Shown here: in pieces, positions 3,168 to 51,250 of the stretch | Numbering within the stretch: position 1 is the stretch's first letter | Layout of the letters: every line of letters starts with the position of its first letter | Source of the DNA: Eubacteriales bacterium | Lineage (GTDB): Bacteria > Bacillota > Clostridia > Peptostreptococcales > Acidaminobacteraceae | NCBI GenBank assembly: GCA_043770095.1 | Contig: JAYVIR010000026.1 | Coordinates: 44,678-108,677 of the forward strand | Reading direction: 5' to 3' | DNA: 64,000 nucleotides | The notes under the pieces: model-generated | Database searches by the model: none | What the model saw: only the letters and a program-made list of their open reading frames with translations | What the model was told of the DNA's origin: nothing | Program-made: the position numbers and the translations under genes

Positions 3168-3282
3168 TTTAAACAGATCGGTAAGCCTTATGACAACAGC
3201 CGCTATGTCTTTGTTTTGTATCTTTAAAATCATTTGATTTTGTTCAAGTTTTGGGTATAATATTGTTATAGAGAAATTCTAT

Positions 3283-3297
3283 TGATAATTATTATCC
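3283..3297. promoter_or_regulatory. Fur-family 7-1-7 box (TGATAATtATTATCc) in the promoter of the selenoprotein gene
   Basis: Near-perfect match to the Bacillus-type Fur box TGATAATnATTATCA. It lies between a TATAAT -10 (about 3255-3260) and the RBS. A second half-site attgataatttt is at 3306-3317. Confidence 0.45.
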
Positions 3298-3332
3298 ATC
3301 TACAATATTGATAATTTTAAGGAGGTAGGCAC

Positions 3333-3647
3333 ATGAAGATTCAAACGAATTCATCCACTATAGATGAAATTAAGAAAATCATGGACACTCAAGCAGAACG
3401 CCCTAAATTTGTAAGAGTATTTGTTGCAGGCTATGGCTGAGGCGGCCCATCATTAGGTTTAGCTCTGGATGAGCTAAAGGATAACGATTTACAAGACGAA
3501 GTAGAAGGCGTTTCATTTGTTATGGACAAAGAAGTTCACGAAACAATGGGCAATGTTAAAGTAGAATTCGTAGGCAATGGTTATCAGGTTGTCCCTGTTG
3601 ATCAAGCGCCAAGCGATTGCAGCAGTTGCACAAGCTGTGGCGACTAA
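3333..3647 (+). CDS. HesB-like selenoprotein (Sec encoded by in-frame TGA at 3438-3440); paralogue of the downstream Cys form
   Basis: ATG 3333 follows RBS ggaggtagg. Translation MKIQTNSSTIDEIKKIMDTQAERPKFVRVFVAGYG-[TGA]-GGPSLGLALDELKDNDLQDEVEGVSFVMDKEVHETMGNVKVEFVGNGYQVVPVDQAPSDCSSCTSCGD stays in frame through the TGA to TAA 3645-3647. The TGA aligns exactly with the Cys of the paralogue motif AGHGCSGPSLGLALDE. The ORF track does not list it because of the internal TGA. Confidence 0.7.
3459..3477 (+). promoter_or_regulatory. Candidate SECIS-like hairpin 18 nt downstream of the UGA
   Basis: ttagctc-tggat-gagctaa forms a perfect 7-bp stem with a 5-nt loop inside the coding sequence just 3' of the TGA. 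This is where bacterial SECIS elements lie. Confidence 0.35.
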
Positions 3648-3697
3648 GCATCAAATAAACTAATAGAAAAACAAATAGCATTCAATATTTAAATAGA

Positions 3698-3735
3698 CAA
3701 ACCCTCAAATATTTATTGTTTGAGGGTTTCTTTTT
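3698..3735 (+). terminator. Rho-independent terminator after the selenoprotein gene
   Basis: aaaccctcaaa ... tttgagggttt stem followed by a T-run. Confidence 0.65.
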
Positions 3736-3743
3736 GGTGTGCC

Positions 3744-3779
3744 TGTGCTATAATTAAACTAGTAAATGTAATCATTACA
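3744..3779 (+). promoter_or_regulatory. Extended -10 promoter (TGcTATAAT) with a Zur/Fur-family-like 6-1-6 palindrome TGTAATcATTACA overlapping the transcription start
   Basis: TGnTATAAT at 3746-3754. Perfect palindrome TGTAAT c ATTACA at 3767-3779 (compare the Zur box TCGTAATnATTACGA). attgataatt follows at 3781-3790. Confidence 0.45.
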
Positions 3780-3788
3780 ATTTGATAA

Positions 3789-4118
3789 TTGGAGGCAATT
3801 AATATGAAAGTTGAAATCAGTCAAGAAACAATAGATGAAATCAAAAGAACCATCGAAACGCAAAGCGACCGTCCAGCAAACGTAAGAATCTTCTTAGCGG
3901 GTCATGGTTGCAGCGGTCCTTCACTTGGTCTTGCACTAGACGAAATCAAGGACACTGACCTCATCGACGAGTCTGGCGAATTAAAATTCATCATGGACAA
4001 AGACGTTTATGAGCAAATGGGCGAAGTAAAAGTTGAGTTCGTAGGCAATGGTTATCATGTTGCGTCAGTAAACGAAGTTGAATCTGGTTGCAGTAGCTGC
4101 GGCGGCGGATGTCACTAG
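3789..4118 (+). CDS. HesB-like protein, Cys-containing paralogue of the selenoprotein
   Basis: 109 aa. MKVEISQETIDEIKRTIETQSDRPANVRIFLAGHGCSGPSLGLALDE...VEFVGNGYHV...SGCSSCGGGCH is colinear with the upstream gene (about 55% identity by eye). It has Cys where the upstream gene has TGA. Confidence 0.75.
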   Translation: MEAINMKVEISQETIDEIKRTIETQSDRPANVRIFLAGHGCSGPSLGLALDEIKDTDLIDESGELKFIMDKDVYEQMGEVKVEFVGNGYHVASVNEVESGCSSCGGGCH

Positions 4119-4296
4119 TTTTTTGACGCGGCAAACAATTTAAACAAATGCAAAGGCCTCTATTCCTGAGATTGTTCTTGGGGGTAGGGGTCTTTTTTTG
4201 TATTCTCGTCACCGCGAAGACACAAATATTTGATATACTGTGCAAGGAGAATCAAAATTGCAACTTATTTCCTTAATGTAAAGGAGCTATTTATAG

Positions 4297-5013
4297 ATGC
4301 GAACATATATATGCCCCAACTGTTATAAATTAAATCCAGCAAGCCAGTTAACATGTAAGCGATGCAAAACTTTATTGGGAGAAGTTCCCGAAACCATTGT
4401 GACTCGAAAAGAAGCCAAGGAACTACAAGAAACGCTTTACAATCGGCATAAGTATGAGATTGTTGAGTTTCTAAAAAAGCAGTACGATACCTCAGAAATC
4501 TATTATCACGACGAAGAAGTTGACGCCAAGCCAGTTAGATTGCCTTATAAAATTCATTATTTAAGACGGCGTATCATTGGAATTTCAATTCTTTGCTTAG
4601 TTGCAATAGGAATTATTCTAACTGGAGCGGTTGATTCCAATGATCTGTTGAATGAGGATAAAATGTTTAATCTATCAAAGTATTTATTAATAGGATTGAA
4701 GTTCTTTGTTCCGCTAATTTTCATTTGGGGTGGTGCGGGAAGTTTAGGTTTACGCCCTAAGAACCTTCAAATTCATGAGTCACATTTTAAAATCGGCTCA
4801 AAAGAAATTCCATGGCATAAAATTCACAGAATTGGATTTGTGCAGGACGAGTCAAGCGGAAAAGAACGCGTCATTCTTGAAATATGGTATGACCAACACC
4901 CGGAAGTCTATCGACTCAAAATCAATGAAAATAAAGAGGCGTTAAAATTAAGAAAGGTATTAGAGGGTATGGCGATTAAAAATGACTGTGCCTATTACTT
5001 GGATTTAATTTAA
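4297..5013 (+). CDS. Membrane protein with N-terminal zinc-ribbon (CPNC...CKRC), two TM helices and a C-terminal PH-like (bPH/YdbT-like) domain
   Basis: CxxC...CxxC at the N-terminus and two hydrophobic segments. C-terminal ...HFKIGSKEIPWHKIHRIGF...RVILEIWYDQHPEVYRLKI... resembles bacterial PH domains. Confidence 0.45.
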   Translation: MRTYICPNCYKLNPASQLTCKRCKTLLGEVPETIVTRKEAKELQETLYNRHKYEIVEFLKKQYDTSEIYYHDEEVDAKPVRLPYKIHYLRRRIIGISILCLVAIGIILTGAVDSNDLLNEDKMFNLSKYLLIGLKFFVPLIFIWGGAGSLGLRPKNLQIHESHFKIGSKEIPWHKIHRIGFVQDESSGKERVILEIWYDQHPEVYRLKINENKEALKLRKVLEGMAIKNDCAYYLDLI

Positions 5014-13875: not shown

Positions 13876-14793
13876 TTAGTCATTAGAACCTGTGCTGTAA
13901 AATAACCGAAGCGCCTCTATCGCTGAAGCGGTCGCAGGGGTTAGCGGCATTTGCGAATGCTTGACGATATAAACGGACGTGGTCGGGATTTTCTCAGGTA
14001 TGGGGATGACCTTGAGGTTTTGGTCAGCCCATTTACTCAGCGCCATCTTAGGCACAAACCCTACCCCAATGCCAATGCTCGCCATTTCTAAGATTAGTTC
14101 CACGCTGCCCCCTTCAAACTCGGGCAGCCAAGGGACTTTTTTTTCTGCCAAAAATCGATCGAGCAGCCTGCGCGTGGTCGATTTTGGTTCTAAGGTGATG
14201 AGGGTGCAACGGCTGAGTTTTTTGAGCGTAACCTTCTCACGCTTAAGTCCATATGCTTCTAGCACAGCATCCGTTGCCACGAAGACATTCTCGGTTTCCG
14301 TTAGGGGATAGACGGTTAGGCGCTGAGTCTCGAGTGTTGCCTCGTAGTTTACCACGGCAAAATCAATCTCGCCCTTTTGAACAAGCTCAGAAGAAATGGG
14401 CGATGGGCGGTTGTTGATGGTAATGCGAATGAGTGGGTGTTTTTCATGGAAGCTTTTGATATAGGGCAGCAGTAAAAATCGGCTGATGGTGTCGCTCGCA
14501 CCGAGGCGTATACTGCCAGAGTGGAGCTGGTTCATGTCTCTGAGAGTCGCTGCGCCTTTGTCTAGCAGTCGGATGGCGGGTTCAACGTGCTCAAGCAGAA
14601 TTTCACCCTCTCTGGTGAGCTTGACCCGTCGTCCGTCTTTATAGAAAAGTTTGACTTCTAAAGCGTCTTCGAGTAGACGGATGGTTTGACTCACGGCAGA
14701 TTGGGTAACGAATAACTCAGCGGCTGCTTTTGTATAACTTAAATGAATGGCCGCGGCGTAGAATACTTTGTACCACTCATATTGCAAATTCAT
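13876..14793 (-). CDS. LysR-family transcriptional regulator, divergent from purL
   Basis: N-terminal HTH (YTKAAAELFVTQSAVSQTIRLLE) and a LysR substrate-binding domain. 305 aa. Confidence 0.85.
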   Translation of the reverse strand: MNLQYEWYKVFYAAAIHLSYTKAAAELFVTQSAVSQTIRLLEDALEVKLFYKDGRRVKLTREGEILLEHVEPAIRLLDKGAATLRDMNQLHSGSIRLGASDTISRFLLLPYIKSFHEKHPLIRITINNRPSPISSELVQKGEIDFAVVNYEATLETQRLTVYPLTETENVFVATDAVLEAYGLKREKVTLKKLSRCTLITLEPKSTTRRLLDRFLAEKKVPWLPEFEGGSVELILEMASIGIGVGFVPKMALSKWADQNLKVIPIPEKIPTTSVYIVKHSQMPLTPATASAIEALRLFYSTGSND

Positions 14794-14900
14794 ACATTAG
14801 TTCTCCTTATAGAATACATTAGAATGATTAATTATGATTATATAAGAACGGGTGTTAAAATGATAGTAGGAAATCACAAAATGATGGAGGTAAGGGAATC

Positions 14901-17900
14901 ATGGTGAAAAGAATATTGGTGACAAAGCGTCCTGAGCTCGATGTAGAAGGGACTTCACTTTACAAGCAAATACGTGAATTTTTACAAATAGACAGCATTG
15001 AAAAAGTGACCGTTTATAACGGCTACGACGTAGAAGGATTAAATGACTTAGAAATTGATAAGGCAATCGAATGTGTCTTCTCAGAGCCAAATGCAGATTT
15101 TGTGTCAGAGCAAATTACACTTGAAGCAGGAGAGCAGGTTGTCTTTTTCAAACTCCTTCCGGGTCAATATGACCAAAGAGCGGATTCGGCAAAGCAGTGC
15201 ATCGCCATTCTTGGACTTGGTCAAAATGTTGGACTTCAGTGTTTTAGAGCGGTTGTGTTAAAAGGAAATCCTACGCCAGAAGCGTTAAACAGCATTAAAA
15301 AGTTCTTGATCAACCCAGTGGAAGCGCTCGAAATTCCTGCTCAGGCACCTCTTTCAACGGCGGTTATTTTGCCAGTTCCAAGTGACATCCATCGCTACGA
15401 CGGCTTCAATCAAATGGACGAAGCGGCGCTGGAAGCTTTCATCAAAGGGGAAGGCCTTGCAATGAACGCAGAAGACTTAAAAATGGTTCAAGCGTATTTC
15501 CAATCAGAAAAAAGAGAACCTTCAAATACAGAGATCAAAGTACTGGACACTTATTGGTCGGATCATTGCCGTCACACGACTTTCACAACCGAGATTACTG
15601 AGGTGACGTATGGTGAAACGGGTGAAACTTCTGCCTATAGCGCGCTTCTTGCAAAAGCAGAAAAAGAATACCATGACATGCGCCAGTTGGTTTACGGTGA
15701 GCGTGCGAAGACTAGACCAGTTACTTTAATGGATCTTGCCACCATCAACGCAAAGTATTTAAAGAAGCAAGGTAAACTCTCAGACGTGTTGGAATCTGAA
15801 GAAATCAATGCGGCGACCTTTGAAACTGAGGTTACTTTTGAAGACGGCAGCAAAGCGCCTTACTGGATCTTGTTCAAAAATGAAACGCACAACCATCCAA
15901 CGGAAATTGAGCCTTTCGGCGGTGCGGCGACGTGTCTTGGCGGTGCGATTAGAGACCCACTTTCAGGCAGAGCACTGGTTTACCAAGGGATGCGTATTAC
16001 AGGCGCAGCGGATCCGAGAGCTTCTTTGGAAGAAACTTTGGCTGGAAAATTGCCGCAGCGTGTCATTACGAGAGGCGCGGCAAAAGGCTTTAGCAGTTAC
16101 GGCAATCAGATCGGCCTTGCAACGGGCTTGGTTAGAGAATATTACCACGACGGTTTCCTCGCTAAGCGCATGGAAGTCGGCGCAGTGGTTGGCGCAGTTC
16201 CGAAAGATCAAGTGCGCAGAGAAAGTCCGGTTTCAGGCGATGTCATTCTTCTCATCGGCGGAAAAACAGGCATTGACGGCTGCGGCGGTGCAACAGGTTC
16301 ATCGAAAGAACATGATGAAGCGTCACTTGCTACTTGCGCATCAGAAGTGCAAAGAGGCAATGCGCCTGAAGAGCGAAAACTTCAAAGACTCTACAGCAGA
16401 GCAGACTTTGCGGCTCTTGTGAAAAAGTCCAACGACTTTGGTGCAGGTGGCGTATCGGTTGCTGTTGGAGAACTTGCAGACAGCTTGATCATCAATTTAG
16501 ACGCAGTCAGATCAAAATATGAAGGCCTTGATGGCACTCAGCTTGCCATTTCAGAGAGCCAAGAGAGAATGGCAGTCGTGGTGTCTCCAAAAGATGCGGC
16601 GGCGGTAATCGCTTTATCGGCTTCAGAAAACTTGGAAGCTTATCAAGTGGCAGAAGTGACGGACAGTGGCTATTTGACAATGACTTGGAAAGGCGACACC
16701 ATTCTTCATTTAAAGAGAGCCTTTGTGGAAACCAATGGTGCAAAGCGTGAGCAAAGCGTTGTGGTTAAAACCGAGACGCCAGATGTGGACGCTGCCCTTA
16801 AAAATACGTTAAAAGAGAAAAAATCCTTAAAAGCAGTGGTAGACAATTTGGCTCAGAGCCTTAACTTCTGTTCGCAAGAAGGTTTGGTTGAAATGTTCGA
16901 CAACAGCGTGGGTGCACTTTCAGTACACATGCCATTTGGCGGCAGAAGACAAAAGACGCCAACGCAGGCAATGGTCAGCAGAATTCCTGCCTATGAAGTA
17001 CACGGCAAAAATGTTACGACGGCAACGGTTATGGCAGCCGGATATGACCCAGAAGTTCTCAGCGCAGACCCATTCAGCGGCGGCGCAAAATGCACCGTAG
17101 AAGCCTTGGCAAAAGTGATTGCTGTCGGTGGCGAGCTTGGCAAGGTGAAATTCTCTATGCAAGAGTATTTTGAGAAACTCGCAGACGATCCTAAAAAATG
17201 GGGCAACCCTTACAAAGCTCTTCTTGGAAGCGCTTATGCCTTAAAAGGACTTGAACTATGTGCCATTGGTGGTAAAGATTCCATGTCAGGGACGTTCAAA
17301 GAAAAAACAGTGCCGCCCACTTTGATTGCGTTTGCGGCAACGGTAGCTGAATCGGAACATGTGGTTTCGCCAGAATTCAAGGCTGAAAATGAAGCTCTTT
17401 ATTTAATCGATGTCGACAAAGACGCTTTTGGCATTCCAAACTTTGAAAATTTGAAAACGGTGTATGCGCTCTACGGCAAACTCATCGCGGCAGATGTCAT
17501 CGGTTCGGCAATGGCGCTTGAACAAGGCGGCCTCCTTGGCGCACTCATCAAAATGAGCTTTGGCAATCAAATTGGTGTCCAAATGGCACCAGGCTTTGCT
17601 CTAATGACAAACGAATGGCTGCAGGCACGTTATGGTGCCCTTGTGTTTACCATCAAAACAGAAACATCGATTAGCCCTGAGGCACAAGCCTTGGTCAGTG
17701 AAACTTTAGGCTTATTAATAGATATGGGACTTGCAAACAAATTTGGTAAGACGATAGCGACTTGGAGCCTTGAGACTGGAAAAGAGTCCATTGCTTTAGG
17801 CGATGTAGAGAAAATATGGGAAGCACCGCTTTCTGAAATATTCCCAAGAGTCAAAGACGCTACAGGTGAAGCGCTCGTTAGCGGACTTGTTGGAACGTAT

Positions 17901-18713
17901 GATTTAAGAAAACTTTCGGTAAATGTTCTAACAGGCGCAAAGCCAAAAGTCTTCATTCCAGCTTTTCCAGGCACCAACTGCGAAATGGACACGATGAGAG
18001 CCTTCGAACTTGCGGGCGCCGAGGCACACGTTGAAGTCTTTAGAAACAAGACGGCTTCAGACGTTTCATACAGCATCGAAAGTTATATAAAAGCGGTTAG
18101 ATCTTCCCAAATGATCGCACTTCCAGGTGGTTTCAGCGCAGGCGACGAACCGGATGGTTCAGGCAAATTCATCTGCAGCGTTCTTAGAAATCCAGAACTT
18201 GCTGAGGAAGTCATGAAGCTTCTTAGAGAAAGAGACGGCCTAATGATCGGTATTTGCAACGGCTTCCAAGCACTTGTAAAACTTGGTTTGGTCACTTACG
18301 GCGAAATCCGAACGTTAGAAGACGATGCGCCTACGCTCACCTACAATACTTGTGGCAAGCACATCTCTAAAATTGTCAGCATCTCAAGCGTTAAAAACGA
18401 TTCTCCTTGGCTTAAAAATGCGGAAGTCGGTGCTGAGTATCAAGTGGCGATGTCTCACGGCGAAGGCAGATTCTTCTGTAATGAGACATGGTATGAGCAG
18501 TTAAAGGCGAACGGCCAACTCGCAACACACTATGCGCCGGGGAGTAACTTAAATGGCTCAATGTTCGACATTGAAGGCATTACAAGCCCTGACGGCAGAA
18601 TATTCGGTAAAATGGGCCATGCAGAGCGCATTGGTCATAATACCTACAAGAATATTCCAGGTCGCTATGATATGGGCATTTTTAAAGCTGGAGTTGCCTA
18701 TTTTAAACGATAG
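14901..18713 (+). CDS. purL: Phosphoribosylformylglycinamidine synthase, single-chain large form
   Basis: 1270 aa. The FGAM synthetase domain is followed by a C-terminal glutamine amidotransferase domain (GICNGFQAL). Confidence 0.95.
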   Translation: MVKRILVTKRPELDVEGTSLYKQIREFLQIDSIEKVTVYNGYDVEGLNDLEIDKAIECVFSEPNADFVSEQITLEAGEQVVFFKLLPGQYDQRADSAKQCIAILGLGQNVGLQCFRAVVLKGNPTPEALNSIKKFLINPVEALEIPAQAPLSTAVILPVPSDIHRYDGFNQMDEAALEAFIKGEGLAMNAEDLKMVQAYFQSEKREPSNTEIKVLDTYWSDHCRHTTFTTEITEVTYGETGETSAYSALLAKAEKEYHDMRQLVYGERAKTRPVTLMDLATINAKYLKKQGKLSDVLESEEINAATFETEVTFEDGSKAPYWILFKNETHNHPTEIEPFGGAATCLGGAIRDPLSGRALVYQGMRITGAADPRASLEETLAGKLPQRVITRGAAKGFSSYGNQIGLATGLVREYYHDGFLAKRMEVGAVVGAVPKDQVRRESPVSGDVILLIGGKTGIDGCGGATGSSKEHDEASLATCASEVQRGNAPEERKLQRLYSRADFAALVKKSNDFGAGGVSVAVGELADSLIINLDAVRSKYEGLDGTQLAISESQERMAVVVSPKDAAAVIALSASENLEAYQVAEVTDSGYLTMTWKGDTILHLKRAFVETNGAKREQSVVVKTETPDVDAALKNTLKEKKSLKAVVDNLAQSLNFCSQEGLVEMFDNSVGALSVHMPFGGRRQKTPTQAMVSRIPAYEVHGKNVTTATVMAAGYDPEVLSADPFSGGAKCTVEALAKVIAVGGELGKVKFSMQEYFEKLADDPKKWGNPYKALLGSAYALKGLELCAIGGKDSMSGTFKEKTVPPTLIAFAATVAESEHVVSPEFKAENEALYLIDVDKDAFGIPNFENLKTVYALYGKLIAADVIGSAMALEQGGLLGALIKMSFGNQIGVQMAPGFALMTNEWLQARYGALVFTIKTETSISPEAQALVSETLGLLIDMGLANKFGKTIATWSLETGKESIALGDVEKIWEAPLSEIFPRVKDATGEALVSGLVGTYDLRKLSVNVLTGAKPKVFIPAFPGTNCEMDTMRAFELAGAEAHVEVFRNKTASDVSYSIESYIKAVRSSQMIALPGGFSAGDEPDGSGKFICSVLRNPELAEEVMKLLRERDGLMIGICNGFQALVKLGLVTYGEIRTLEDDAPTLTYNTCGKHISKIVSISSVKNDSPWLKNAEVGAEYQVAMSHGEGRFFCNETWYEQLKANGQLATHYAPGSNLNGSMFDIEGITSPDGRIFGKMGHAERIGHNTYKNIPGRYDMGIFKAGVAYFKR

Positions 18714-18869
18714 AATATTCATTGAACAAATTTTAAGAAAATGACATTAAATATTCTTTTAAAAGTAGTTGAAGGTTTGCTTAAGAATTGGTAAGATAAG
18801 AGCAAGAGAAAAACACGAAGTATCATACGAGTTAAAAACATAAATGTTCGTACTATTAGGAGGGACTTC

Positions 18870-19355
18870 ATGAAAGTTGCTATATTGATGGGAAGCCATT
18901 CAGATCTTGAAATCGTTTCAAAAACAGAAGCAATCTTAACGCAGTTTGGCATTGCAGTGGAAATGCACATTTTATCTGCTCACAGAACACCAGAAGAAGT
19001 TAAGGCATTCGTTAGCCGTGCAGAAGAGAATGGTTTTGAAGTGGTCATTGGGGCGGCAGGCAAAGCAGCACATTTGCCGGGTGTCATCGCATCGTATACG
19101 ACGCTTCCTGTTATTGGATTGCCGCTTAAAGGTGGCATTATGGACGGACTCGACGCTCTTCTTGCGGTCGTGCAAATGCCTGCTGGCATTCCAGTTGCGA
19201 CAGTGGCAGTCAATGGGGCTGAAAATGCAGGATTATTGGCAGTTCATATTCTCAGCATCAAATATCCTGAAATCAATCAAAAGTTAAAAGCTTATAGAGA
19301 GCAAATGAGAACAGACGTGCTTGATAAAGATCATACTTATGGGAGGGTTTTATAA
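18870..19355 (+). CDS. purE: N5-carboxyaminoimidazole ribonucleotide mutase / AIR carboxylase catalytic subunit
   Basis: 161 aa. The SAHRTP motif and typical PurE sequence. Confidence 0.9.
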   Translation: MKVAILMGSHSDLEIVSKTEAILTQFGIAVEMHILSAHRTPEEVKAFVSRAEENGFEVVIGAAGKAAHLPGVIASYTTLPVIGLPLKGGIMDGLDALLAVVQMPAGIPVATVAVNGAENAGLLAVHILSIKYPEINQKLKAYREQMRTDVLDKDHTYGRVL

Positions 19356-20071
19356 TGAATAAAGTGACCATGCTCTACGAAGGAAAAGCGAAACGCGTTT
19401 ATACTACAGAGGATCAAGACCTTTACATTATGGAATTCAAAGACGATGCAACTGCTTTTAACGGCGAAAAAAAAGGCACGATTGACAATAAAGGCGTTAT
19501 GAACAATGCCATCAGCGAAAGCCTTTACAAAATTCTCATGGAAAATGGCATTCCAACTCACTTTGTTGAGAAACTTAACGACAGAGATACGTTGGTAAAA
19601 GCGGTTAAAATCATTCCAATCGAAGTGCTTGTCAGAAACGTGGCGGCAGGATCGCTTACAAACCGTCTTGGCATCGCTGAAGGGACTGAACTTCCAATGA
19701 CTGTCCTTGAATTCTGTTTCAAGAATGACGAACTCGGCGATCCGCAAATCAACGAGTATCACATCGAAGCGATGGAACTTGCAACGAAAGCACAAGTAGA
19801 AACCATTAAAATAGATGCGCTTAGAATCAATGAAATCTTAAAGAAAATCTTCATCGAAAAAGGCATTCGCTTAATCGATTTCAAATTGGAATTTGGCGTT
19901 CATAAAGGGGAAGTGATTCTTGCAGACGAAATTTCGCCTGACACTTGCCGTCTTTGGGACCTTGCGACAAACGAAAAACTCGACAAAGACCGTTTCAGAA
20001 GAAACCTTGGCAACATTGAAGAGGCTTACAAAGAAATTTTGAGCCGTTTAGGCGGAGGCGCTAATGAATAA
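19355..20071 (+). CDS. purC: SAICAR synthetase
   Basis: 238 aa. LYEGKAKRVY... is the canonical PurC N-terminus. Confidence 0.95.
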   Translation: MNKVTMLYEGKAKRVYTTEDQDLYIMEFKDDATAFNGEKKGTIDNKGVMNNAISESLYKILMENGIPTHFVEKLNDRDTLVKAVKIIPIEVLVRNVAAGSLTNRLGIAEGTELPMTVLEFCFKNDELGDPQINEYHIEAMELATKAQVETIKIDALRINEILKKIFIEKGIRLIDFKLEFGVHKGEVILADEISPDTCRLWDLATNEKLDKDRFRRNLGNIEEAYKEILSRLGGGANE

Positions 20072-21509
20072 TATGCGCAAAATGGGCTTTGACCCATTTG
20101 AAGGCGGACTCGAAGACGATAAATTAAAAGAAGAATGCGGCGTCATCGGACTTTACATCAATGACCCTGAGCGCATTGCCTACATGGCTTGTTATGGGCT
20201 CATTGCGTTACAGCACAGAGGTCAAGAAAGTGCCGGCATTGCGGTTAAAAATGAACATGGCGTGAAATATTATAAAGACATGGGTTTGGTTCAAGAAGTC
20301 TTTAACGACGAAAAACTCAATCAATTAAAAGGCAATATGGCAATTGGCCATGTCAGATACTCGACGACGGGTGACTCACATGTGTCAAATGCTCAGCCGT
20401 TGGTGGTTCAATACAGAGGCGGCGCCATTGCGCTTGCTCATAACGGAAATCTTGTCAATGCCAATGTCATTCGCGACGAACTTGAAGATGGCGGCGCCAT
20501 TTTCCAAACATCCATTGACAGTGAAGCCATTGCGGCGCTTATTGCTAAGAACTATAAAGATGGCCTTGAACTCAGTTTGATCCGTTCGCTCAAGAAACTC
20601 AAAGGCTCTTTTGCCCTTGTTATTCTCAGCGAAGACAAACTCATCGGCGTGAGAGATGCTTACGGCCTTAGACCTTTATGTCTTGGAAGATTGGATGGCG
20701 GCTATGTGCTTGCATCTGAAACTTGTGCGCTCGACGTACTTGGCGCAACTTTTGAAAGAGACATTGAGCCAGGTGAAATCGTCATCATAGATGAAACGGG
20801 CGTCAATTCTTTAAAATTTACAGAACCTCAGCGCAAAGCCGTTTGTAGCTTTGAATACGTTTACTTTGCTAGACCAGATTCGAATATTGACGGCGTCAAT
20901 GTTTACCTGACTCGCAAAAATGCAGGTCGGATTTTGGCTCAGGAACACCCTGCCGAGGCGGATATGGTCATGGCTGTACCGGATTCAGGCATCGCCGGTG
21001 CGATTGGATTCTCTGAAGAGAGCGGCATTCCAATGGGTATTGGTCTGATCAAGAACAAATATATGGGCAGAACATTCATTCAACCCGATCAAAAACTTCG
21101 CGAATTGTCAGTGGGTCTCAAACTCAACGTGCTTAAAGAAAACGTGGTTGGCAAGCGCGTGGTACTCGTGGACGACTCAATTGTTCGCGGCACGACGAGC
21201 AAGAAAATCGTTGAAATGCTTCTAAAAGCAGGCGCCAAGGAAGTGCACATGCGGATCACTTCACCGCCAGTATGCCATTCTTGTTACTTTGGCATCGATA
21301 CTGGAACGCAGTCGCAGCTCATTGGCTCTGTGTTGTCGGTTGAAGAAATCAACCAAAGCATTGGCTCAAACAGTTTAGGCTACATTTCCAACAAGGGCCT
21401 TGTTGAGAGCATCGGCTGTTCAAAGAATCAACTTTGCACCGCCTGTTTCGATGGTGATTATCCGATGGATGTCCCAAAATCCGCTAATAAATTCTTATTT
21501 GAAAAATAA
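20064..21509 (+). CDS. purF: Amidophosphoribosyltransferase (with propeptide and Fe-S cysteines)
   Basis: CGVIGL N-terminal nucleophile after a short propeptide. PRTase motif VVLVDDSIVRGTT. C-terminal Cys cluster. Confidence 0.95.
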   Translation: MNNMRKMGFDPFEGGLEDDKLKEECGVIGLYINDPERIAYMACYGLIALQHRGQESAGIAVKNEHGVKYYKDMGLVQEVFNDEKLNQLKGNMAIGHVRYSTTGDSHVSNAQPLVVQYRGGAIALAHNGNLVNANVIRDELEDGGAIFQTSIDSEAIAALIAKNYKDGLELSLIRSLKKLKGSFALVILSEDKLIGVRDAYGLRPLCLGRLDGGYVLASETCALDVLGATFERDIEPGEIVIIDETGVNSLKFTEPQRKAVCSFEYVYFARPDSNIDGVNVYLTRKNAGRILAQEHPAEADMVMAVPDSGIAGAIGFSEESGIPMGIGLIKNKYMGRTFIQPDQKLRELSVGLKLNVLKENVVGKRVVLVDDSIVRGTTSKKIVEMLLKAGAKEVHMRITSPPVCHSCYFGIDTGTQSQLIGSVLSVEEINQSIGSNSLGYISNKGLVESIGCSKNQLCTACFDGDYPMDVPKSANKFLFEK

Positions 21510-21576
21510 TATTAATGAAACGAAATTCATATAAACGGGAACGAACCAATTCCCCCACAGGTCAGGGAGGGTACTT

Positions 21577-22644
21577 ATGAGCCATAGCAGAGAAGCTTAC
21601 AAACAGAGCGGTGTCAACGTAGAAGAAGGTTATAAAGCCGTTGAGATGATGAAGCACTTCGTCAATAGAACGCATAATGACAAAGTCATCGGCGGCCTTG
21701 GCAACTTTTCGGGCATGATGCGTCTTGGTCAATATAAAGACCCAGTGCTTTGCTCTGGAACAGACGGCGTCGGCACAAAACTCAAAGTGGCGTTTCTCAT
21801 GGACAGACACGATACTGTAGGCATTGATCTTGTCGCTATGTGCGTCAACGACATTCTCTGCCAAGGCGCAGAACCACTTTTCTTCCTCGACTACATTGCA
21901 ACCGGAAGACTTGAAGCTGAAAAAGCGGCAATGCTCGTGAAGGGCGTTTCGGAAGGTTGCTTGGAATCTGGAATGGCACTTCTTGGCGGCGAAACGGCTG
22001 AAATGCCTGGTTTCTACCCAGAAGGCGAATATGACATGGCTGGTTTTGCAGTCGGCGTTGTGGAAAAAGAAGACCTCATTGACGGCCTTAAAATCAGCGT
22101 AGGCGATGTCGTGATTGGCCTCCCATCGACTGGTTTCCATTCAAACGGCTATTCGCTTGTTAGAAAAACACTCATCGAGAGCGGCAGCGATTCTTCAACG
22201 GAAGGCACTAAGAGCGAATCTGAAGAGGAAGATCGTCTCAATGCGTTTGTTCCAGAACTGGGAGAAACACTTGGAGAAGCGCTCCTTAGATCGACTAAAA
22301 TATATGTTAAAGAAGTAGCGGCACTTAAAACGAAAGTGGAACTGCTTGGTATGTGTCACATCACAGGCGGCGGCTTCTACGAAAACGTGCCAAGAATGCT
22401 TAAAAATGGCATGGGCGTGACCTTCGACGACAGCAAATGGGAAGTTCCGGCTGTGGTTAAATACCTTCAAGACAAAGCAGGTCTTTCAAAAGAAGAAATG
22501 TATGGCACGTTTAACATGGGTATTGGTTTCATGATCGTGGTTAAACCCGAACAAGCAGCATTAGCCCTTTCTACACTACATGAACAGGGCTTTAAAGGCC
22601 AAGTAATTGGCGCTATAAACGGTGACGGGCAGGTTACGGTATGA
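21577..22644 (+). CDS. purM: Phosphoribosylformylglycinamidine cyclo-ligase (AIR synthetase)
   Basis: 355 aa. Canonical PurM sequence (GVNVEEGYKAV..., DYIATG). Confidence 0.95.
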   Translation: MSHSREAYKQSGVNVEEGYKAVEMMKHFVNRTHNDKVIGGLGNFSGMMRLGQYKDPVLCSGTDGVGTKLKVAFLMDRHDTVGIDLVAMCVNDILCQGAEPLFFLDYIATGRLEAEKAAMLVKGVSEGCLESGMALLGGETAEMPGFYPEGEYDMAGFAVGVVEKEDLIDGLKISVGDVVIGLPSTGFHSNGYSLVRKTLIESGSDSSTEGTKSESEEEDRLNAFVPELGETLGEALLRSTKIYVKEVAALKTKVELLGMCHITGGGFYENVPRMLKNGMGVTFDDSKWEVPAVVKYLQDKAGLSKEEMYGTFNMGIGFMIVVKPEQAALALSTLHEQGFKGQVIGAINGDGQVTV

Positions 22645-23261
22645 TGTCTTTAGACAAAAGTTCTGGCAGAAAAAATCTGGCGGTATTTGTCTCAGGCAGC
22701 GGTACCAACTTGCAAGCCATTATGGATGCATGTGACAGTGGCGAGCTTTTCGCCACTGTTTCCCTAGTTGTGGCGGACAATGACAGCTGTTTTGCTCTAA
22801 AACGAGCAGAATCGGCGGGCACTCAGACATTTATTCAAGACAAAAAACAGATGCGACTATTAGACGCAGAGGGCAAAAAAGAGGCACATCAGGCGCTTTT
22901 ACAAGCGCTAAAGAGCCACCAAATTGACTTGGTAGTACTCGCAGGGTATTTGAGTCTGATTGACCAAAGCCTTGTAACGGCGTATCCCAAAGGCATCATC
23001 AATCTGCACCCAGCCCTCATTCCGCTTTACTGCGGTAAAGGCTATTACGGCGACAAAGTTCATAGAGAAGTGCTTGCAAACGGCGAAACAGAGAGTGGCA
23101 TTACCATTCATTTTGTCGATGGCGGCTTTGATACAGGCGAGATCATTTTACAAAAGAAAGTGCCTGTTTATAAGGATGACACGGTGGAAACCTTATCCGC
23201 GCGGATTCACGCCCTTGAGCATGAAGAATTAAAACAGGTGATTAAGAAGTTGCTTCTATAG
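22641..23261 (+). CDS. purN: Phosphoribosylglycinamide formyltransferase
   Basis: 206 aa. GSGTNLQAI and INLHPALIP motifs. Overlaps the purM stop. Confidence 0.9.
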   Translation: MMSLDKSSGRKNLAVFVSGSGTNLQAIMDACDSGELFATVSLVVADNDSCFALKRAESAGTQTFIQDKKQMRLLDAEGKKEAHQALLQALKSHQIDLVVLAGYLSLIDQSLVTAYPKGIINLHPALIPLYCGKGYYGDKVHREVLANGETESGITIHFVDGGFDTGEIILQKKVPVYKDDTVETLSARIHALEHEELKQVIKKLLL

Positions 23262-23320
23262 TTAGGAAGATTAATAAATTAGACAATCGGTTGAAATTTA
23301 TATAAATTGGAGAGTGGATC

Positions 23321-24850
23321 ATGAAGAGCGCATTGATCAGTGTAAGCGATAAAACGGGCATTGTCGATTTAGGCAAACGCCTCACAGCCTTAGGTTGGAG
23401 AATTCTTTCGACAGGTGGCACTTCTAAGACGTTAAACGATAGCGGCATTAAAACCACAGATGTTTCTGATATCACAGGTTTTCCAGAATGTATGGATGGA
23501 AGGGTTAAAACCTTGCACCCGAAGGTTCATGGCGGTTTACTCGCAAGAAGAAGCCTCGAAAAGCACATGCAGCAAGCGGAGAGCCTTGGCATTGAAATGA
23601 TCGATATGGTCGTGGTCAATTTATATCCGTTTAAAGAAACCCTTCAAAAAGCTGGCTCAACGCATGAAGATATTATTGAAAACATTGATATAGGCGGTCC
23701 AAGCATGCTTCGCTCTGCGGCAAAGAATTATCAAGACGTGGTGGTGCTCTGTGATCCAAACGATTACGAAGCCGTTCTTGAAAAAATGGAAGCAGGCGAA
23801 AAGTTTGAAGAGTCTGAACGTGCATTGTTCGCGCTTAAAGTCTTTGAACACACCTCTCACTACGACACCCTCATCGCTGCCTACCTTCAAAAACACACAG
23901 GAAGAGTTGAGCCGGGCAAAACAGTGACCTTGACGTATGAGCTCGCTCAAAGCTTACGTTACGGCGAAAATCCACACCAAAAAGCATGGTTTTTAAAAGA
24001 CGCTTTGGTGACAGATGAGGCGATGTCTTCGTTTAAACAGCTTCACGGCAAAGAACTTTCCTTCAATAATTTAAACGATCTGTCTTCTGCCATTCAAATG
24101 GTCAGAGAATTTAAAGAACCTGCGGCCATTGCCGTTAAACATACAAACCCTTGCGGCGCAGCTGTTGGACATGATATTGCTACTGCTTATCAGTTGGCGC
24201 ACGATGCAGACCCAACGTCTATCTTTGGAGGCATTATTGCCCTCAACAGACAAGTCGACCGAGAAACAGCGGAGAAAATGAGCAAAATATTCCTTGAAAT
24301 CATTGCCGCTCCAAGTTACACAGAAGAGGCGCTTGAAGTCCTCACCAAAAAGAAAAACCTCAGACTCCTTGAGATTCCAACGGACAAGCCGTTTGAAGAT
24401 TCATTGGATATGAAGAAAATAGAAGGCGGCCTCTTGATCCAAGAAGCCGATCACAGCACAGAAGTGCCTTACAGAGTCGTTACAGAACGCATTCCGACTG
24501 ACTCGGAAATCGCAGACCTTCTCTTCGGTTGGAAAATTGTGAAACACGTCAAATCTAATGCGATTGTGCTTTCAAAAAATGACGTGACCGTTTCCGTCAG
24601 CCCAGGCCAAACAAGCCGAATCCTTGCAACAGAAAACGCCATCAGACAAGCTGGCGAAAACGTAAAAGGGACTGTATTAGCATCAGACGCCTTCTTCCCA
24701 TTCGCAGACGTCATCGACGCAGCCTCAGCAGCAGGCATTTCAGCCATCGTCCAACCAGGCGGCTCAGTAAACGACCCCGAAGTCATCGCCGCAGCGAATA
24801 AACACGGGATAGCGATGATCTTTACGGATAGACGGCATTTCAAGCATTAA
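23321..24850 (+). CDS. purH: Bifunctional AICAR transformylase / IMP cyclohydrolase
   Basis: 509 aa. MGS-like N-terminal domain (ALISVSDKTG) plus the AICARFT domain. Confidence 0.95.
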   Translation: MKSALISVSDKTGIVDLGKRLTALGWRILSTGGTSKTLNDSGIKTTDVSDITGFPECMDGRVKTLHPKVHGGLLARRSLEKHMQQAESLGIEMIDMVVVNLYPFKETLQKAGSTHEDIIENIDIGGPSMLRSAAKNYQDVVVLCDPNDYEAVLEKMEAGEKFEESERALFALKVFEHTSHYDTLIAAYLQKHTGRVEPGKTVTLTYELAQSLRYGENPHQKAWFLKDALVTDEAMSSFKQLHGKELSFNNLNDLSSAIQMVREFKEPAAIAVKHTNPCGAAVGHDIATAYQLAHDADPTSIFGGIIALNRQVDRETAEKMSKIFLEIIAAPSYTEEALEVLTKKKNLRLLEIPTDKPFEDSLDMKKIEGGLLIQEADHSTEVPYRVVTERIPTDSEIADLLFGWKIVKHVKSNAIVLSKNDVTVSVSPGQTSRILATENAIRQAGENVKGTVLASDAFFPFADVIDAASAAGISAIVQPGGSVNDPEVIAAANKHGIAMIFTDRRHFKH

Positions 24851-24854
24851 GAGA

Positions 24855-24898
24855 ATTCGCGAAGCGAATACTCGCGGCAGGACATTCGCAAAGCGAAT
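24855..24898. repeat. Two copies of a 15-bp palindrome ATTCGC-nAA-GCGAAT in the purH-purD intergenic spacer
   Basis: attcgcgaagcgaat (24855-24869) and attcgcaaagcgaat (24884-24898). Each arm pair is exactly reverse-complementary. Confidence 0.6.
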
Positions 24899-24941
24899 TA
24901 CCGAGAGCAGGAGCGTTTAAGTTGAAAGGATGTGTCCATAA

Positions 24942-26201
24942 ATGAAGGTTTTAATCATTGGTAACGGCGCGAGGGAGCATGCCATCGCTTGGAAGCTTCG
25001 CATGAGTCCCTTGGTAGAAGAACTTTATATTGCACCGGGTAATTATGGCACGGAGAAAATTGGTAAAAACGTCAACATCGACGTGGAAGACCTAGAAGGG
25101 CTTAAGGCGTTTGCCATTTCACAGAGGATTGACCTGACGGTTGTCGGGCCCGAAATGCCACTTGTACTCGGCATCGTAGACCTTTTTAGAGCGGCGGGAC
25201 TTAAAATTATTGGGCCTGACAAACGCGGCGCCCAGCTTGAAGGCAGCAAAGACTATGCCAAAGAATTTATGGTCAGACATAACATTCCGACGGCGGCCTA
25301 TGCGACTTACATCGATTACGATAGCTCGGTTAGCGGACTTGAAGCTTTTAAATACCCAATGGTTATCAAGGCGGACGGATTGGCGGCAGGAAAAGGCGTG
25401 ATCATTGCACTTACCAAAGAAGAGGCGCTTGACGCGCTGAAACTTATTTTTATAGATCAGAAATTTGGCAGTTCGGGCAACAAAGTTGTGCTGGAGGAAT
25501 TCCTTGAAGGCGTTGAAGTGTCGGTACTTTGCCTCGTAGACGGCGAGACGATTCTTCCGCTTGAAACGGCGCAGGACTACAAACGCGCATTCAATGACGA
25601 TGAAGGCCCGAATACAGGCGGCATGGGCACGTATTCACCGAGCCGCTATTTGGTAGGCGACCTGTATCAAGAGGCGCTCGACTTGGTGGTTCAGCCAACC
25701 CTAAAAGGCATTCAAGCCGATGGTTACGACTTTAGAGGCATTGTCTTTATTGGCATCATGATGACCAGTGACGGCCCTAAAGTACTCGAATACAACTGTC
25801 GTTTCGGCGATCCAGAAACCCAGTCCATACTGGCAAGACTGGAAAGTGATTTGATGGAAGTCTTTGTGAAATTGTCACGAAAAGAATTGTCAAAAGTGTC
25901 GCTCAAGTGGTCAAGTCAAGTGGCGGTGTCCGTGGTACTCGCTTCTGGCGGTTACCCCGACGACTATGCATCGGGCGTTGAAGTGAAGTCGCCAGAGCGT
26001 TTCTCTGGTCTAACCGATGCAGGGATTCTATTTGCAGCAGGCCTTAAGACCCATACCAATGGCCCCGTGACTGCTGGTGGCAGGGTTATGACCGCAACCG
26101 CTCTTGGAGAAACCTTCGAAGTGGCTAGGGCGAAGGCTTACAACTTAGCGAAATTGGTCAGTTTTGATGGCATGTTTTATAGGACGGATATTGGAAAGTA
26201 A
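24942..26201 (+). CDS. purD: Phosphoribosylamine-glycine ligase (GAR synthetase)
   Basis: 419 aa. The ATP-grasp fold and canonical PurD N-terminus MKVLIIGNGAREHA. Confidence 0.95.
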   Translation: MKVLIIGNGAREHAIAWKLRMSPLVEELYIAPGNYGTEKIGKNVNIDVEDLEGLKAFAISQRIDLTVVGPEMPLVLGIVDLFRAAGLKIIGPDKRGAQLEGSKDYAKEFMVRHNIPTAAYATYIDYDSSVSGLEAFKYPMVIKADGLAAGKGVIIALTKEEALDALKLIFIDQKFGSSGNKVVLEEFLEGVEVSVLCLVDGETILPLETAQDYKRAFNDDEGPNTGGMGTYSPSRYLVGDLYQEALDLVVQPTLKGIQADGYDFRGIVFIGIMMTSDGPKVLEYNCRFGDPETQSILARLESDLMEVFVKLSRKELSKVSLKWSSQVAVSVVLASGGYPDDYASGVEVKSPERFSGLTDAGILFAAGLKTHTNGPVTAGGRVMTATALGETFEVARAKAYNLAKLVSFDGMFYRTDIGK

Positions 26202-44785: not shown

Positions 44786-44865
44786 CGCATAAAGCAACCT
44801 ATATGCGTTGAAATTTTGATTAAGAGCGACCGAAAACTAAAATTTTGTTTTGGTTAAAATGATTT

Positions 44866-44881
44866 TGGCATAAACCTTGCT
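44866..44881 (+). promoter_or_regulatory. Sigma-54 (-24/-12) promoter TGGCAT-aaacc-TTGCT upstream of the yfcC-type gene
   Basis: GG and GC dinucleotides are exactly 12 nt apart (tGGcataaaccttGCtt). It lies 40 nt upstream of the RBS and 80 nt downstream of the activator gene. Confidence 0.55.
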
Positions 44882-44921
44882 TTTAACAACTAGCAGTTCT
44901 TAAAAAGGGGGAATTAGCAAA

Positions 44922-46643: not shown

Positions 46644-46683
46644 CTAAATGACTTACAAACTTGAAACTCTGGAGGTGCATTAA

Positions 46684-47856
46684 GTGATTTTATTAAAACA
46701 AGTGGAAGTATATGCCCCAGAGAAGATTGGGTGCAGAGATGTTCTGATAGGCGCAGAAAAAATACTGCAAATATCAGAAAATGAGATAGATACTGGTGAC
46801 ATGCCCGTAACGGTAATAGATGGAAAAGGCATGGTATTGGTGCCGGGACTCATTGACGCACACGTTCACATCTGTGGTGGCGGAGGTGAAGGTGGTTACA
46901 AAACGCGTACGCCAGAGCTCAAAATGACGGAAATGATTCAAGCGGGCGTAACGACAGTAGTGGGTTGCCTCGGGACGGACGGGATTACCAGAACCATGGA
47001 AAATCTTGTGGCCAAAGTGTACAGCCTGCGTGAAGAAGGGGTTTCTGCTTGGTGCTACAGCGGTTCTTATCAGGTGCCTGTGAGGACTTTGACGGGAGAC
47101 ATCATGAAAGACATTATGCTCATTGACCCAATCATCGGCATTGGAGAAATTGCGCTTAATGATCACAGATCTTCTTCGGTAACGGTTCAGGAACTGGCTC
47201 GAATCACGTCGGAGGCGAGAGTGGCGGGTATTTTGTCAGGCAAAGCGGGCGTTATCAACTGCCATTTAGGCGATGGCCCCTTTGACTTGGATCAAATTGA
47301 TCAAGCGGTAGAACAGTTTGTCCTGCCAATTGCACAATTTTATCCGACCCATATCAACCGAAATGCAGGTCTTTTTGAAAAAGGGATTGCTCATGCTTTA
47401 AAAGGTGGCATGGTGGATATGACCACATCGACAACCCCTCAGTTTATTGAAGAAGGGGAAGTGCCTGCAGCAGAAGCGCTGTTTCTGATGAGGGCTGCGG
47501 GTGTGCCGTCAAATCGCATCACGTTTACATCGGATGGGCATGGCAGTCTTCCAATGTTCGGCCCGACAGGTGAATTTGAAGGCCTTGGCGTTGGACGACT
47601 CGACAGTCTTCTAGAATCGGTCAGAGAAGCGGTAAAAAGACATAACATGCCGCTAGAAGAAGCCTTAGAACCTGTAACGTCAACGCCTGCCAAGTATTTA
47701 AAACTTCACGGCAAAGGGCAGATTCAGGTAAACAAAGATGCCGATTTGGTGCTTCTTGATGCAAGTAGCCTCAACGTTAAAGGGGTTATTGCCAGAGGAA
47801 AACTCTGTATGCTAGACGGTGTGCTTTGTGTAAGGAATACGGTAGAACTTAACTAA
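46684..47856 (+). CDS. iadA: Isoaspartyl dipeptidase (beta-aspartyl peptidase)
   Basis: Closely colinear with E. coli IadA: LVPGLIDAHVHICGGGGEGGYKTRTPEL, VTTVVGCLGTDGITR, GVSAWCYSGSYQVPVRTLTGD, PTHINRN. Confidence 0.85.
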   Translation: MILLKQVEVYAPEKIGCRDVLIGAEKILQISENEIDTGDMPVTVIDGKGMVLVPGLIDAHVHICGGGGEGGYKTRTPELKMTEMIQAGVTTVVGCLGTDGITRTMENLVAKVYSLREEGVSAWCYSGSYQVPVRTLTGDIMKDIMLIDPIIGIGEIALNDHRSSSVTVQELARITSEARVAGILSGKAGVINCHLGDGPFDLDQIDQAVEQFVLPIAQFYPTHINRNAGLFEKGIAHALKGGMVDMTTSTTPQFIEEGEVPAAEALFLMRAAGVPSNRITFTSDGHGSLPMFGPTGEFEGLGVGRLDSLLESVREAVKRHNMPLEEALEPVTSTPAKYLKLHGKGQIQVNKDADLVLLDASSLNVKGVIARGKLCMLDGVLCVRNTVELN

Positions 47857-47902
47857 GGAAATCTAACTATAAAGCTATCTATAAAACAAAGAGCGGTGAC
47901 AT

Positions 47903-49582: not shown

Positions 49583-49596
49583 GGAGGGCGAACAGT

Positions 49597-50970: not shown

Positions 50971-51017
50971 GTTGAATGAGTAGGTCAACTTATAGAGATC
51001 ATAAAGGAAGTGGATAT

Positions 51018-51227: not shown

Positions 51228-51250
51228 AGAAAAAAGGAGTAAAACATAAA

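Follow-up and report, generated by a model that had tools for sequence, protein, structure and literature searches.

This analysis concerns a stretch of 64,000 nucleotides (nt), hereafter the window, from a member of the Acidaminobacteraceae deposited as Eubacteriales bacterium (assembly GCA_043770095.1, contig JAYVIR010000026.1, positions 44,678 to 108,677 of the forward strand), and in particular two adjacent genes for small HesB/IscA-like proteins near its start. The first, at 3333..3647 on the forward strand, is very probably a selenoprotein gene: its 104 codons include an in-frame UGA (3438..3440, +) at codon 36, the predicted selenocysteine (Sec) codon of a U-G-G-P motif, which is followed by a hairpin with the features of a bacterial Sec insertion sequence (SECIS). 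The second, at 3804..4118 on the same strand, encodes a paralogue, again of 104 codons, that has Cys instead of Sec (motif C-S-G-P) and whose translation is identical to the database protein P0001. Taken as a whole, a Sec-containing A-type carrier with its SECIS element, a Cys paralogue, and a division of control between Fur and PerR is the explanation that we consider likely for this locus.

The frame of the Sec gene starts at ATG 3333, behind the ribosome-binding site AGGAGG (3320..3325, +; AGGAGGT is invariant in six orthologues), and proceeds through 35 codons to the TGA at 3438-3440 and then through 68 sense codons to TAA 3645-3647. Gene callers split it into "hypothetical protein" fragments of 35 and 41 aa, and the proposal of the initial annotation that reading through the TGA restores a 104-codon gene missed by the calling of open reading frames (ORFs) is confirmed. 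When the TGA is treated as a residue, the Sec and Cys products align without gaps over 91 residues at 60% identity (E=2e-42), and the TGA falls opposite Cys36 of the paralogue motif GHG-C-SGPSLGLALDE, which is the pairing that had been claimed. The U36-G-G-P column also matches Cys in 20 further Cys homologues.

A scan with the family alignment, in which each prokaryotic species was represented by one genome, gave 80 loci. The Cys column is TGA in 69 non-redundant loci, in which the frame runs on into GP[ST]LGLALD, and TGC or TGT in 13 loci of the same comparison; homologues do not, therefore, end at the TGA. The TGA forms span Bacillota, Desulfobacterota, Myxococcota and other phyla, and come from Acidaminobacteraceae, Tissierellia, Syntrophus, Desulfobulbaceae, Desulfohalobiaceae, Desulfuromonadales and Myxococcota, among others. 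The nearest relatives of the window gene are Acidaminobacteraceae, namely L004 (83% identity), Acidaminobacter hydrogenoformans DSM 2784 (L008), several metagenome-assembled genomes (MAGs) and the metagenome contigs L084-L088, and its TGA is shared by the orthologues in L004-L009 and L084-L088. Judged by these alignments, the TGA at 3438-3440 is a codon that has been conserved where HesB/IscA-like proteins have their ligand Cys.

Compared with five orthologues, the part of the gene behind the TGA has a ratio of nonsynonymous to synonymous substitution (dN/dS) of 0.12-0.25 at a saturated synonymous divergence (dS) of 0.6-1.6, and this purifying selection implies that the region past the TGA is translated. 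If the TGA were instead a true stop, 3333..3440 would encode a 35-residue peptide or be a decaying pseudogene, and the similarity downstream would be the fossil of a recent duplication. Gene callers do treat the codon in this way, and the sequence examined holds no Sec machinery; yet the TGA and the intact frame behind it are kept together in 69 loci across phyla, selection persists past the codon even at saturated dS, no frameshift or extra stop occurs in any orthologue, and the codons of the hairpin described below are invariant in the TGA forms only. A true stop is thus extremely improbable.

As an ordinary stop, TGA ends 8 of the 45 window genes, purM among them, which indicates that the genetic code is not reassigned. 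A public gene call from one of the related metagenome contigs (P0017, equal to L088 at 25-342) renders the Sec codon as Trp in a full-length "GYGWAGP" protein, apparently under code 4; because the L088 DNA has TGA, this Trp is an artefact of code-4 calling. Reassignment as in code 4 or 25, at which the Trp of P0017 had hinted, was rejected on the same DNA and on the eight window genes that end in TGA.

The predicted SECIS hairpin lies at 3458..3478 (+) and consists of a stem of 8 bp (3458-3465 with 3471-3478) and the apical loop UGGAU (3466-3470). Its onset is 18 nt past the TGA, the position given in the initial annotation, and the spacing from UGA to loop is 25 nt (3441-3465); the perfect 7-bp stem described there is in fact 8 bp long, closed by a loop of 5 nt. 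The element is encoded by the codons for L-A-L-D-E-L-K, inside the conserved peptide LGLALDEL. The model of bacterial SECIS (bSECIS) elements allows a loop of 3-9 nt, an upper stem of 4-16 bp, a spacing of 16-37 nt and a minimum free energy of at most -7.5 kcal/mol, in addition to a G as the first or second base of the loop, after which G or U usually comes (PMC13188914). With its 5-nt loop UGGAU, stem of 8 bp, spacing of 25 nt and folding energy of -9.8 kcal/mol, the window hairpin passes on all four counts, and the idea that it stands where bacterial SECIS elements occur is borne out.

Since folding energy by itself fails to separate the Sec and Cys regions, comparative evidence was used instead. 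The codons that build the hairpin (GCT-CTG-GAx-GAG) are frozen in the Sec genes, with Ala as GCT, Leu as CTG and Glu as GAG in 69/69 cases each, whereas the 13 Cys genes, which encode the same peptide, use GCT in 5/13, CTG in 8/13 and GAG in 7/13. These are minor choices in the window genes (GCT 23%, CTG 10%, GAG 27%). Loop columns 29-32 (U-G-G-A) are invariant in the 69 sequences, and the fifth base is U or C (GAT in 56, GAC in 13). In the alignment of these sequences, the six core pairs have 84.5% of their cells paired, compared with 17-49% in controls with a slid 3' arm, a 6-bp stem core is kept in 66 distinct sequences, and pair 24/38 covaries (GC 48, UA 9, AU 4, GU 4, one unpaired). Within the Acidaminobacteraceae clade, the hairpin is found in 12/12 listed Sec genes (-6.5 to -9.1 kcal/mol in a 21-nt frame), so that its supposed conservation in orthologues holds, and in 0/9 listed Cys paralogues (0 to -3.9 kcal/mol), including those that share a genome with a Sec gene. 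On this comparative evidence the hairpin behaves as a SECIS element, and we infer that Sec is inserted in this organism. The comparison amounts to a clean internal control, with the same peptide in the same genomes and codons frozen in the Sec copy only, and shows how strong the SECIS constraint on synonymous sites is.

Translation past the UGA could also take place without Sec, if a near-cognate tRNA-Trp or tRNA-Cys read the codon, or if Cys were inserted through the Sec pathway at low selenium, with the hairpin as a generic stimulator. That the Sec machinery of the genome is putative, and that one gene caller did give Trp (P0017/L088), would both suit such a mechanism. Against it, both the loop sequence and the spacing of the hairpin are those expected of a SelB-dependent bSECIS element (PMC13188914), and the UGA and hairpin form a module common to NF038090 members of Syntrophus and Desulfobulbaceae, which have documented selenoproteomes (PMC1794560). 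In Methanococcus maripaludis, 75Se labelling has established the HesB-like protein as a selenoprotein, and the function of the family is still unknown (PMC11097638); the Trp of P0017 is an artefact. Read-through of this kind is therefore regarded as very unlikely, and insertion of Sec is the preferred reading of the UGA.

Several observations weigh against a selenoprotein. None of selA, selB, selD and tRNA-Sec turned up in the 64-kb window, the 10 kb upstream of it or the related loci examined. Taken on its own, without its relatives, the hairpin is just modestly unusual (z=-2.9, with 2/200 shuffles; -11.9 kcal/mol for the 53-nt fold), and the equivalent 53 nt of the Cys gene (3909-3961) are equally stable in a different shape (-16.4 kcal/mol, z=-2.5). 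Rfam has no match to the hairpin, either in the whole window at gathering thresholds or in 3200-4250 at E up to 10, and the weak hits at 3619-3750 reflect a terminator alone. Both proteins, finally, fall short of two curated cut-offs, that of NF038090 at 85 bits (Sec form 65.1, Cys form 77.7) and that of TIGR01911 HesB_rel_seleno at 66.35 bits (31.0 and 42.3). Beside these points, ARAGORN returned no tRNA from the window and nine related loci, a window scan for split ORFs bridged by TGA gave no second selenoprotein candidate, no full-length Sec protein of the Acidaminobacteraceae clade was found in a collection of 5.8 billion proteins, and no paper linking Acidaminobacter with selenocysteine was found in the literature.

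The HesB-like selenoprotein family has reportedly been known since 2004 from the work of Kryukov and Gladyshev. Its NCBIfam model NF038090 (IscA_HesB_Se) is the top model for both window proteins, ahead of TIGR01911, the Sec form being scored with U replaced by C. As a calibration, Sec forms from Syntrophus, Desulfobulbaceae, Syntrophorhabdus, Myxococcota and deltaproteobacteria reach 104-139 bits on this model, and the Sec proteins of the Acidaminobacteraceae clade 63-67 bits. Because the clade lies below both NCBIfam cut-offs, it goes unannotated. The gathering score of Pfam PF01521 (26.3 bits) is likewise missed, with 17.0 bits for the Cys form and no hit for the Sec form. The suggested HesB-like Sec/Cys pair is thus upheld by the UxGP motif and by the best model, and does not reach the TIGR01911 and NF038090 cut-offs. 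HesB-like proteins are an established selenoprotein family with the motif UxGP (PMC13188914; PMC1794560), and Cys homologues occur in the same or in sister genomes (PMC1794560). By motif and model, both window genes belong to this known kind, as a divergent Acidaminobacteraceae clade.

Structural comparison points the same way. A search of PDB with the clade profile matched structures of IscA, that of E. coli included, ErpA and SufA with E=4e-13 to 2e-4 (top value 1nwb, Aquifex IscA-like, E=3.8e-13), and placed the Cys/Sec column on the ligand cysteine. The AlphaFold2 model of the Cys paralogue has a predicted local distance difference test score (pLDDT) of 82, with a disordered Cys-rich C-terminal tail of low confidence, and its top Foldseek hits are 2apn (ErpA-like), 1r94, 1x0g, 1s98 and 2d2a, with probability 1.00 and template modelling (TM) scores of 0.6-0.72. 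Both products are, by profile and model, predicted to have the IscA/SufA fold. In E. coli IscA, the cluster ligands are Cys35 and the C-terminal C-x-C. The first ligand position of the clade is Sec/Cys36, and its C-terminus carries three invariant Cys as CxxCxx(x)C, not CGC. Genes of the isc or suf type are absent from the vicinity of the pair.

The Cys gene had been placed at 3789..4118 in the initial annotation; its nature as a paralogue and its end at 4118 were correct, and its start is probably not at 3789. The likely start is ATG 3804, 8 nt past GGAGG (3791-3795), and gene callers give the 104-aa protein MKVEIS... (P0001). A start at TTG 3789 is unlikely, as this codon overlaps the ribosome-binding site and the gene calls begin MKVEIS. 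The same order of Sec gene and then Cys gene is found in L006, L007, L008, L009, L084, L085/86 and L087. In a rough neighbour-joining tree, which was built on about 100 positions and is indicative only, the Sec genes of the clade fall together, the Cys genes of the window subgroup are their sister, and the outgroups are all Sec forms. This suggests that the pair arose by duplication, followed by conversion of Sec to Cys before the tandem-bearing Acidaminobacteraceae species diverged. In the Acidaminobacter MAG L005 (about 4440-4600), a Cys paralogue lies almost directly after the Sec terminator, without a recognisable promoter and with an altered motif (NGCSGQSLGLAL); it may be a decaying copy.

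The two genes appear from their signals to be separate transcription units, each with its own promoter and terminator. The promoter of the Sec gene (3234..3261, +) has the -35 element TTGATT (3234-3239), a 16-nt spacer and the -10 element TATAAT (3256-3261), scoring 10/12 in a consensus scan, and six orthologous upstream regions all keep the TATAAT unchanged. Its intrinsic terminator (3699..3737, +) has a 13-bp stem and a T-run, and equivalents are kept in orthologues. The Cys gene has the extended -10 element TGcTATAAT (3746..3754, +), of which T-G-x-TATAAT is kept in 7 loci, and an intrinsic terminator at 4152..4205 (+), found by a terminator scan. In a shorter delimitation, the two terminators span 3699-3729 and 4152-4195.

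Between the -10 element and the ribosome-binding site of the Sec gene lies a predicted Fur-type 7-1-7 operator, TGATAAT-T-ATTATCC (3283..3297). The 7-1-7 operator consensus of Fur is TGATAATNATTATCA, and the window sequence agrees with it at 14/15 positions over 3283-3297, with TGATAATtATTATC at 3283-3296. The classical Fur box GATAATGATnATCATTATC has the same sequence as its core (PMC545781). The block ATTGA[TA]AA[TC]N[AG]TTATC[CT]AT stands at the same promoter position in L085, L084, L004, L006 and L009, making six promoters with the window, and the discriminating bases at positions 2-3/13-14 are GA..TC in all six. In the Acidaminobacter loci L005, L007 and L008, a perfect 7-1-7 palindrome, TGAAAACTGTTTTCA, lies beside the -35 element of the Sec gene, about 170-185 nt upstream of the start (4001), in place of the Fur-type box after the -10 element, and the Cys paralogues of these loci have no TTGTAAT box.

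The corresponding element of the Cys gene is a predicted PerR-type 7-1-7 operator, ATGTAAT-C-ATTACAA (3766..3780), 11 nt after the -10 element; the box of this gene is given as TTGTAATnATTACAA, and TGTAATcATTACA stands at 3767-3779. It is conserved in seven promoters, those of the window and of L004, L006, L009, L084, L085/86 and L087, with the discriminating bases 2-3/13-14 as TG..CA in all of them. Five of the orthologous loci carry the perfect palindrome TTGTAATCATTACAA, and L087 keeps TTGTAATCGTTACAA despite unrelated flanks. The initial annotation had placed both genes behind palindromes of the Fur-family 7-1-7 type, and the preservation of these predicted operators in six Sec and seven Cys promoters agrees with it.

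Each box is the sole match in the window at <=1 mismatch. At <=3 mismatches, the Sec box has 7 matches against 5.95 expected, and the Cys box 13 against 7.15 (64 kb, shuffles). The weaker matches to the two boxes are thus not clearly enriched; the window by itself lends the boxes no statistical support, and the support for them is comparative. A second TGATAAT half-site precedes the ribosome-binding site of the Sec gene (3309..3315) and is partly conserved (AATATTGATAA in L085, AATATTGATGA in L009); in the Cys gene, a TGATAAT half-site (3783-3789) and the ribosome-binding site GGAGG (3791-3795) together occupy 3783..3795 (+), a region in which TTGAGAA[TC]TGGAGGC is kept in orthologues. The two half-sites, at 3309-3315 and 3783-3789, may be extra Fur half-sites or merely a conserved leader.

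Metagenome contigs were scanned for TATAAT-N6-16-TTGTAATNATTACAA, and ORFs of >=55 aa starting within 200 nt downstream were collected (n=35). Proteins of the FUR family (PF01475) make up 8/35 of the ORFs behind this arrangement of -10 element and box. Six of the eight were checked in NCBIfam, where the best model is NF052545, clostridial PerR (94-118 bits), which scores above Fur, while Zur is negligible or absent. The other ORFs behind the box include rubrerythrin (260.7 bits, cut-off 200), Dps, two ferritins, an AhpC/TSA peroxiredoxin and a NifU-like protein. The sequence TTGTAATNATTACAA itself was seen 6-16 nt after TATAAT in diverse metagenome contigs of low G+C content (L091-L170); contigs with a PerR-like regulator include L105, L114, L119, L141, L143, L161 and L164, and further examples are L095, L166, L167, L120 and L152. 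From its company, TTGTAATNATTACAA looks like a widespread PerR-type operator. No paper with the TTGTAAT box sequence was found in the literature, and the C. difficile PerR papers found give no box sequence.

The set of genes behind the box in the metagenomes, with an apparently autoregulated perR and functions in peroxide stress, argues for PerR rather than Zur. A Zur operator would make the Cys form a zinc-starvation paralogue, and the sequence lends itself to this: its core GTAATnATTAC is the same, letter for letter, as in the Gram-positive Zur consensus TAAATCGTAATNATTACGATTTA (PMC545781), and 13/15 positions agree with the 7-1-7 form of the Zur box. The genes behind the 15-mer are, in contrast, PerR-like regulators with negligible Zur scores, rubrerythrin, Dps, ferritin and peroxiredoxin, and neither znuABC nor zinc-independent ribosomal paralogues are among those recovered in the metagenome scan. 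Zinc control of the Cys gene is accordingly rated improbable, and of the earlier label Zur/PerR-like the PerR half is preferred to the Zur half, as that set does not resemble a zinc regulon. Assignment of TGTAATCATTACA to cre, TnrA, Rex, an ArgR box, FNR/CRP or IscR was also considered, and each was dropped on a comparison of spacing or sequence.

A broader doubt is whether the two palindromes are Fur and PerR operators at all. They could serve one common or an unrelated regulator, or be a conserved 5' untranslated region, in which case the genes would not be reciprocally switched. Each box does have a single occurrence in the window, and no further member of a regulon lies close to it; whole promoters are fairly conserved among the closest relatives, which makes the footprint argument weaker; and the Fur-type box varies at 5/15 positions and is missing in L087 and Acidaminobacter. 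On the other side, the discriminating bases are held in all six Sec and all seven Cys promoters, the Cys box survives in L087 amid unrelated flanks, and the same 15-mer lies just past the -10 element of genes for PerR-like regulators, rubrerythrin, Dps, ferritin and peroxiredoxin elsewhere. Such an explanation is rather unlikely, if well worth bearing in mind.

Set against the Fur/PerR assignment itself are also the following points. The orthologous Fur-type boxes drift towards TGAAAAC..TTATC, with 5/15 positions variable, L087 has no Fur-type box, and Acidaminobacter has a different palindrome elsewhere in the promoter region. The Cys box agrees at 13/15 positions with both the B. subtilis PerR box TTATAATNATTATAA and the Zur consensus (PMC545781), and the choice of PerR rests on promoters of other organisms. 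Pfam annotation of about 45 ORFs shows no gene for a Fur-family regulator in the 64-kb window. Weighing these against the conservation described above, the chances that the two boxes are Fur and PerR operators seem about evenly balanced.

The following picture emerges. The gene at 3333..3647 very probably encodes a 104-residue A-type iron-sulfur (Fe-S) carrier whose first cluster ligand is the Sec at UGA 3438-3440, inserted under the direction of the SECIS hairpin at 3458-3478. The Cys paralogue probably stems from duplication and Sec-to-Cys conversion within the Acidaminobacteraceae lineage. If the boxes are the predicted operators, Fur with Fe(II) would repress the Sec gene and release it when iron is scarce, and PerR would repress the Cys gene and release it under peroxide or oxygen stress, so that the cell would pick a selenolate or a thiolate ligand by the type of stress. 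From the two boxes we infer binding of Fur and PerR and a reciprocal expression of the two forms, and a true reciprocal switch, with the Sec form under Fur (iron) and the Cys form under PerR (peroxide), is put forward tentatively, as a possibility that we would not favour at present. Because the second box is of PerR type, any switch would oppose iron and oxidative stress and would not be purely metal-dependent; the initial annotation had suggested a metal-dependent switch.

The neighbourhood is uninformative on the function of the pair. The gene order is argG-argH, an amino-acid binding protein, lysS (in the window), the pair, cell-wall genes and the pur operon; the 10 kb upstream of the window hold argG, argH and transporters only, and among the approximately 45 window ORFs Pfam recognised enzymes of the cell wall, transporters, the pur operon and a cluster for oxaloacetate decarboxylase. 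The gene that immediately follows the pair (4297-5013) specifies a product of 238 aa, which shows a zinc-ribbon-like CxxC...CxxC motif at its N-terminus and two predicted hydrophobic stretches; it has no Pfam match and adjoins the pair only in the window's own species. In L085, the LysR-type gene and purL come directly after the Cys gene, which makes the cell-wall block at 4.3-13.7 kb of the window an insertion relative to L085. The purine cluster at 13876-26201 is complete, with purL, purE, purC, purF, purM, purN, purH and purD and a divergent gene for a LysR-type regulator. Further along, 42617-52760 holds a sigma-54 activator, a DcuC-type C4-dicarboxylate carrier, an amidohydrolase, a chemoreceptor with a solute-binding domain, and the alpha, biotin-carrier and beta subunits of oxaloacetate decarboxylase, and looks like a sigma-54-dependent cluster for dicarboxylate or amino-acid fermentation.

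While the family itself is known, what is new here is a divergent clade missed by current models, a conserved Sec/Cys tandem and a predicted split between Fur and PerR. The clade stands in databases as "hypothetical" fragments of 35 aa and 41-61 aa, and lower cut-offs or a model of its own would recover the HesB-like selenoproteins of the Acidaminobacteraceae. If the predicted control is real, the exchange of Sec and Cys isoforms would be driven by iron and oxidative stress and not by selenium supply, and a cysteine A-type carrier would join rubrerythrin, Dps and ferritin in the clostridial PerR stress regulon. A natural tandem Sec/Cys pair in which each gene has its own recognisable operator offers a simple setting in which to ask whether it is iron limitation or peroxide stress that makes a cell prefer a selenolate over a thiolate as ligand of an Fe-S carrier.

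The closest known proteins are the HesB-like selenoproteins (Zhang et al. 2006; NF038090, TIGR01911), which are similarly small, with Sec at the first conserved Cys in UxGP(S)LGLALDE, and the bona fide NF038090 members of Syntrophus, Desulfobulbaceae and Myxococcota share the same SECIS core, GCUCUGGAUGAGC. The window clade differs from them in its C-terminal CxxCxxC(G)(D/E/H) tail, in the adjacent Sec and Cys copies and in their own operators. With IscA, SufA and ErpA (PF01521; 1s98, 1r94, 2d2a, 2apn, 1x0g), the pair has in common the fold and profile homology, the ligand Cys/Sec in a G-G-C-S-G-type loop and a flexible Cys-rich C-terminal tail, but one copy has Sec as the first ligand, and CxxCxx(x)C takes the place of C-G-C. 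The hairpin resembles the bSECIS consensus and elements of the E. coli fdhF type in being a stem-loop in the coding region right after the UGA, with a small loop that has G at position 2 followed by G, although it has no sequence similarity to the fdhF SECIS.

With respect to control, E. coli sufA is regulated by Fur, OxyR and IscR. The suf operon is thus comparable in having an A-type carrier dedicated to stress that responds to iron limitation and peroxide; in the window, the two signals would instead be split over two paralogues, with PerR and not OxyR as the peroxide sensor, as predicted from operator sequences. Another parallel is HrsM of Methanococcus maripaludis, where one organism has both Sec and Cys isoforms and controls their transcription separately (PMC11097638). 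There, in an archaeon, a LysR-type repressor answers to selenium status, whereas the sensors predicted for the window pair are of the Fur family, responding to iron and peroxide, without a link to selenium.

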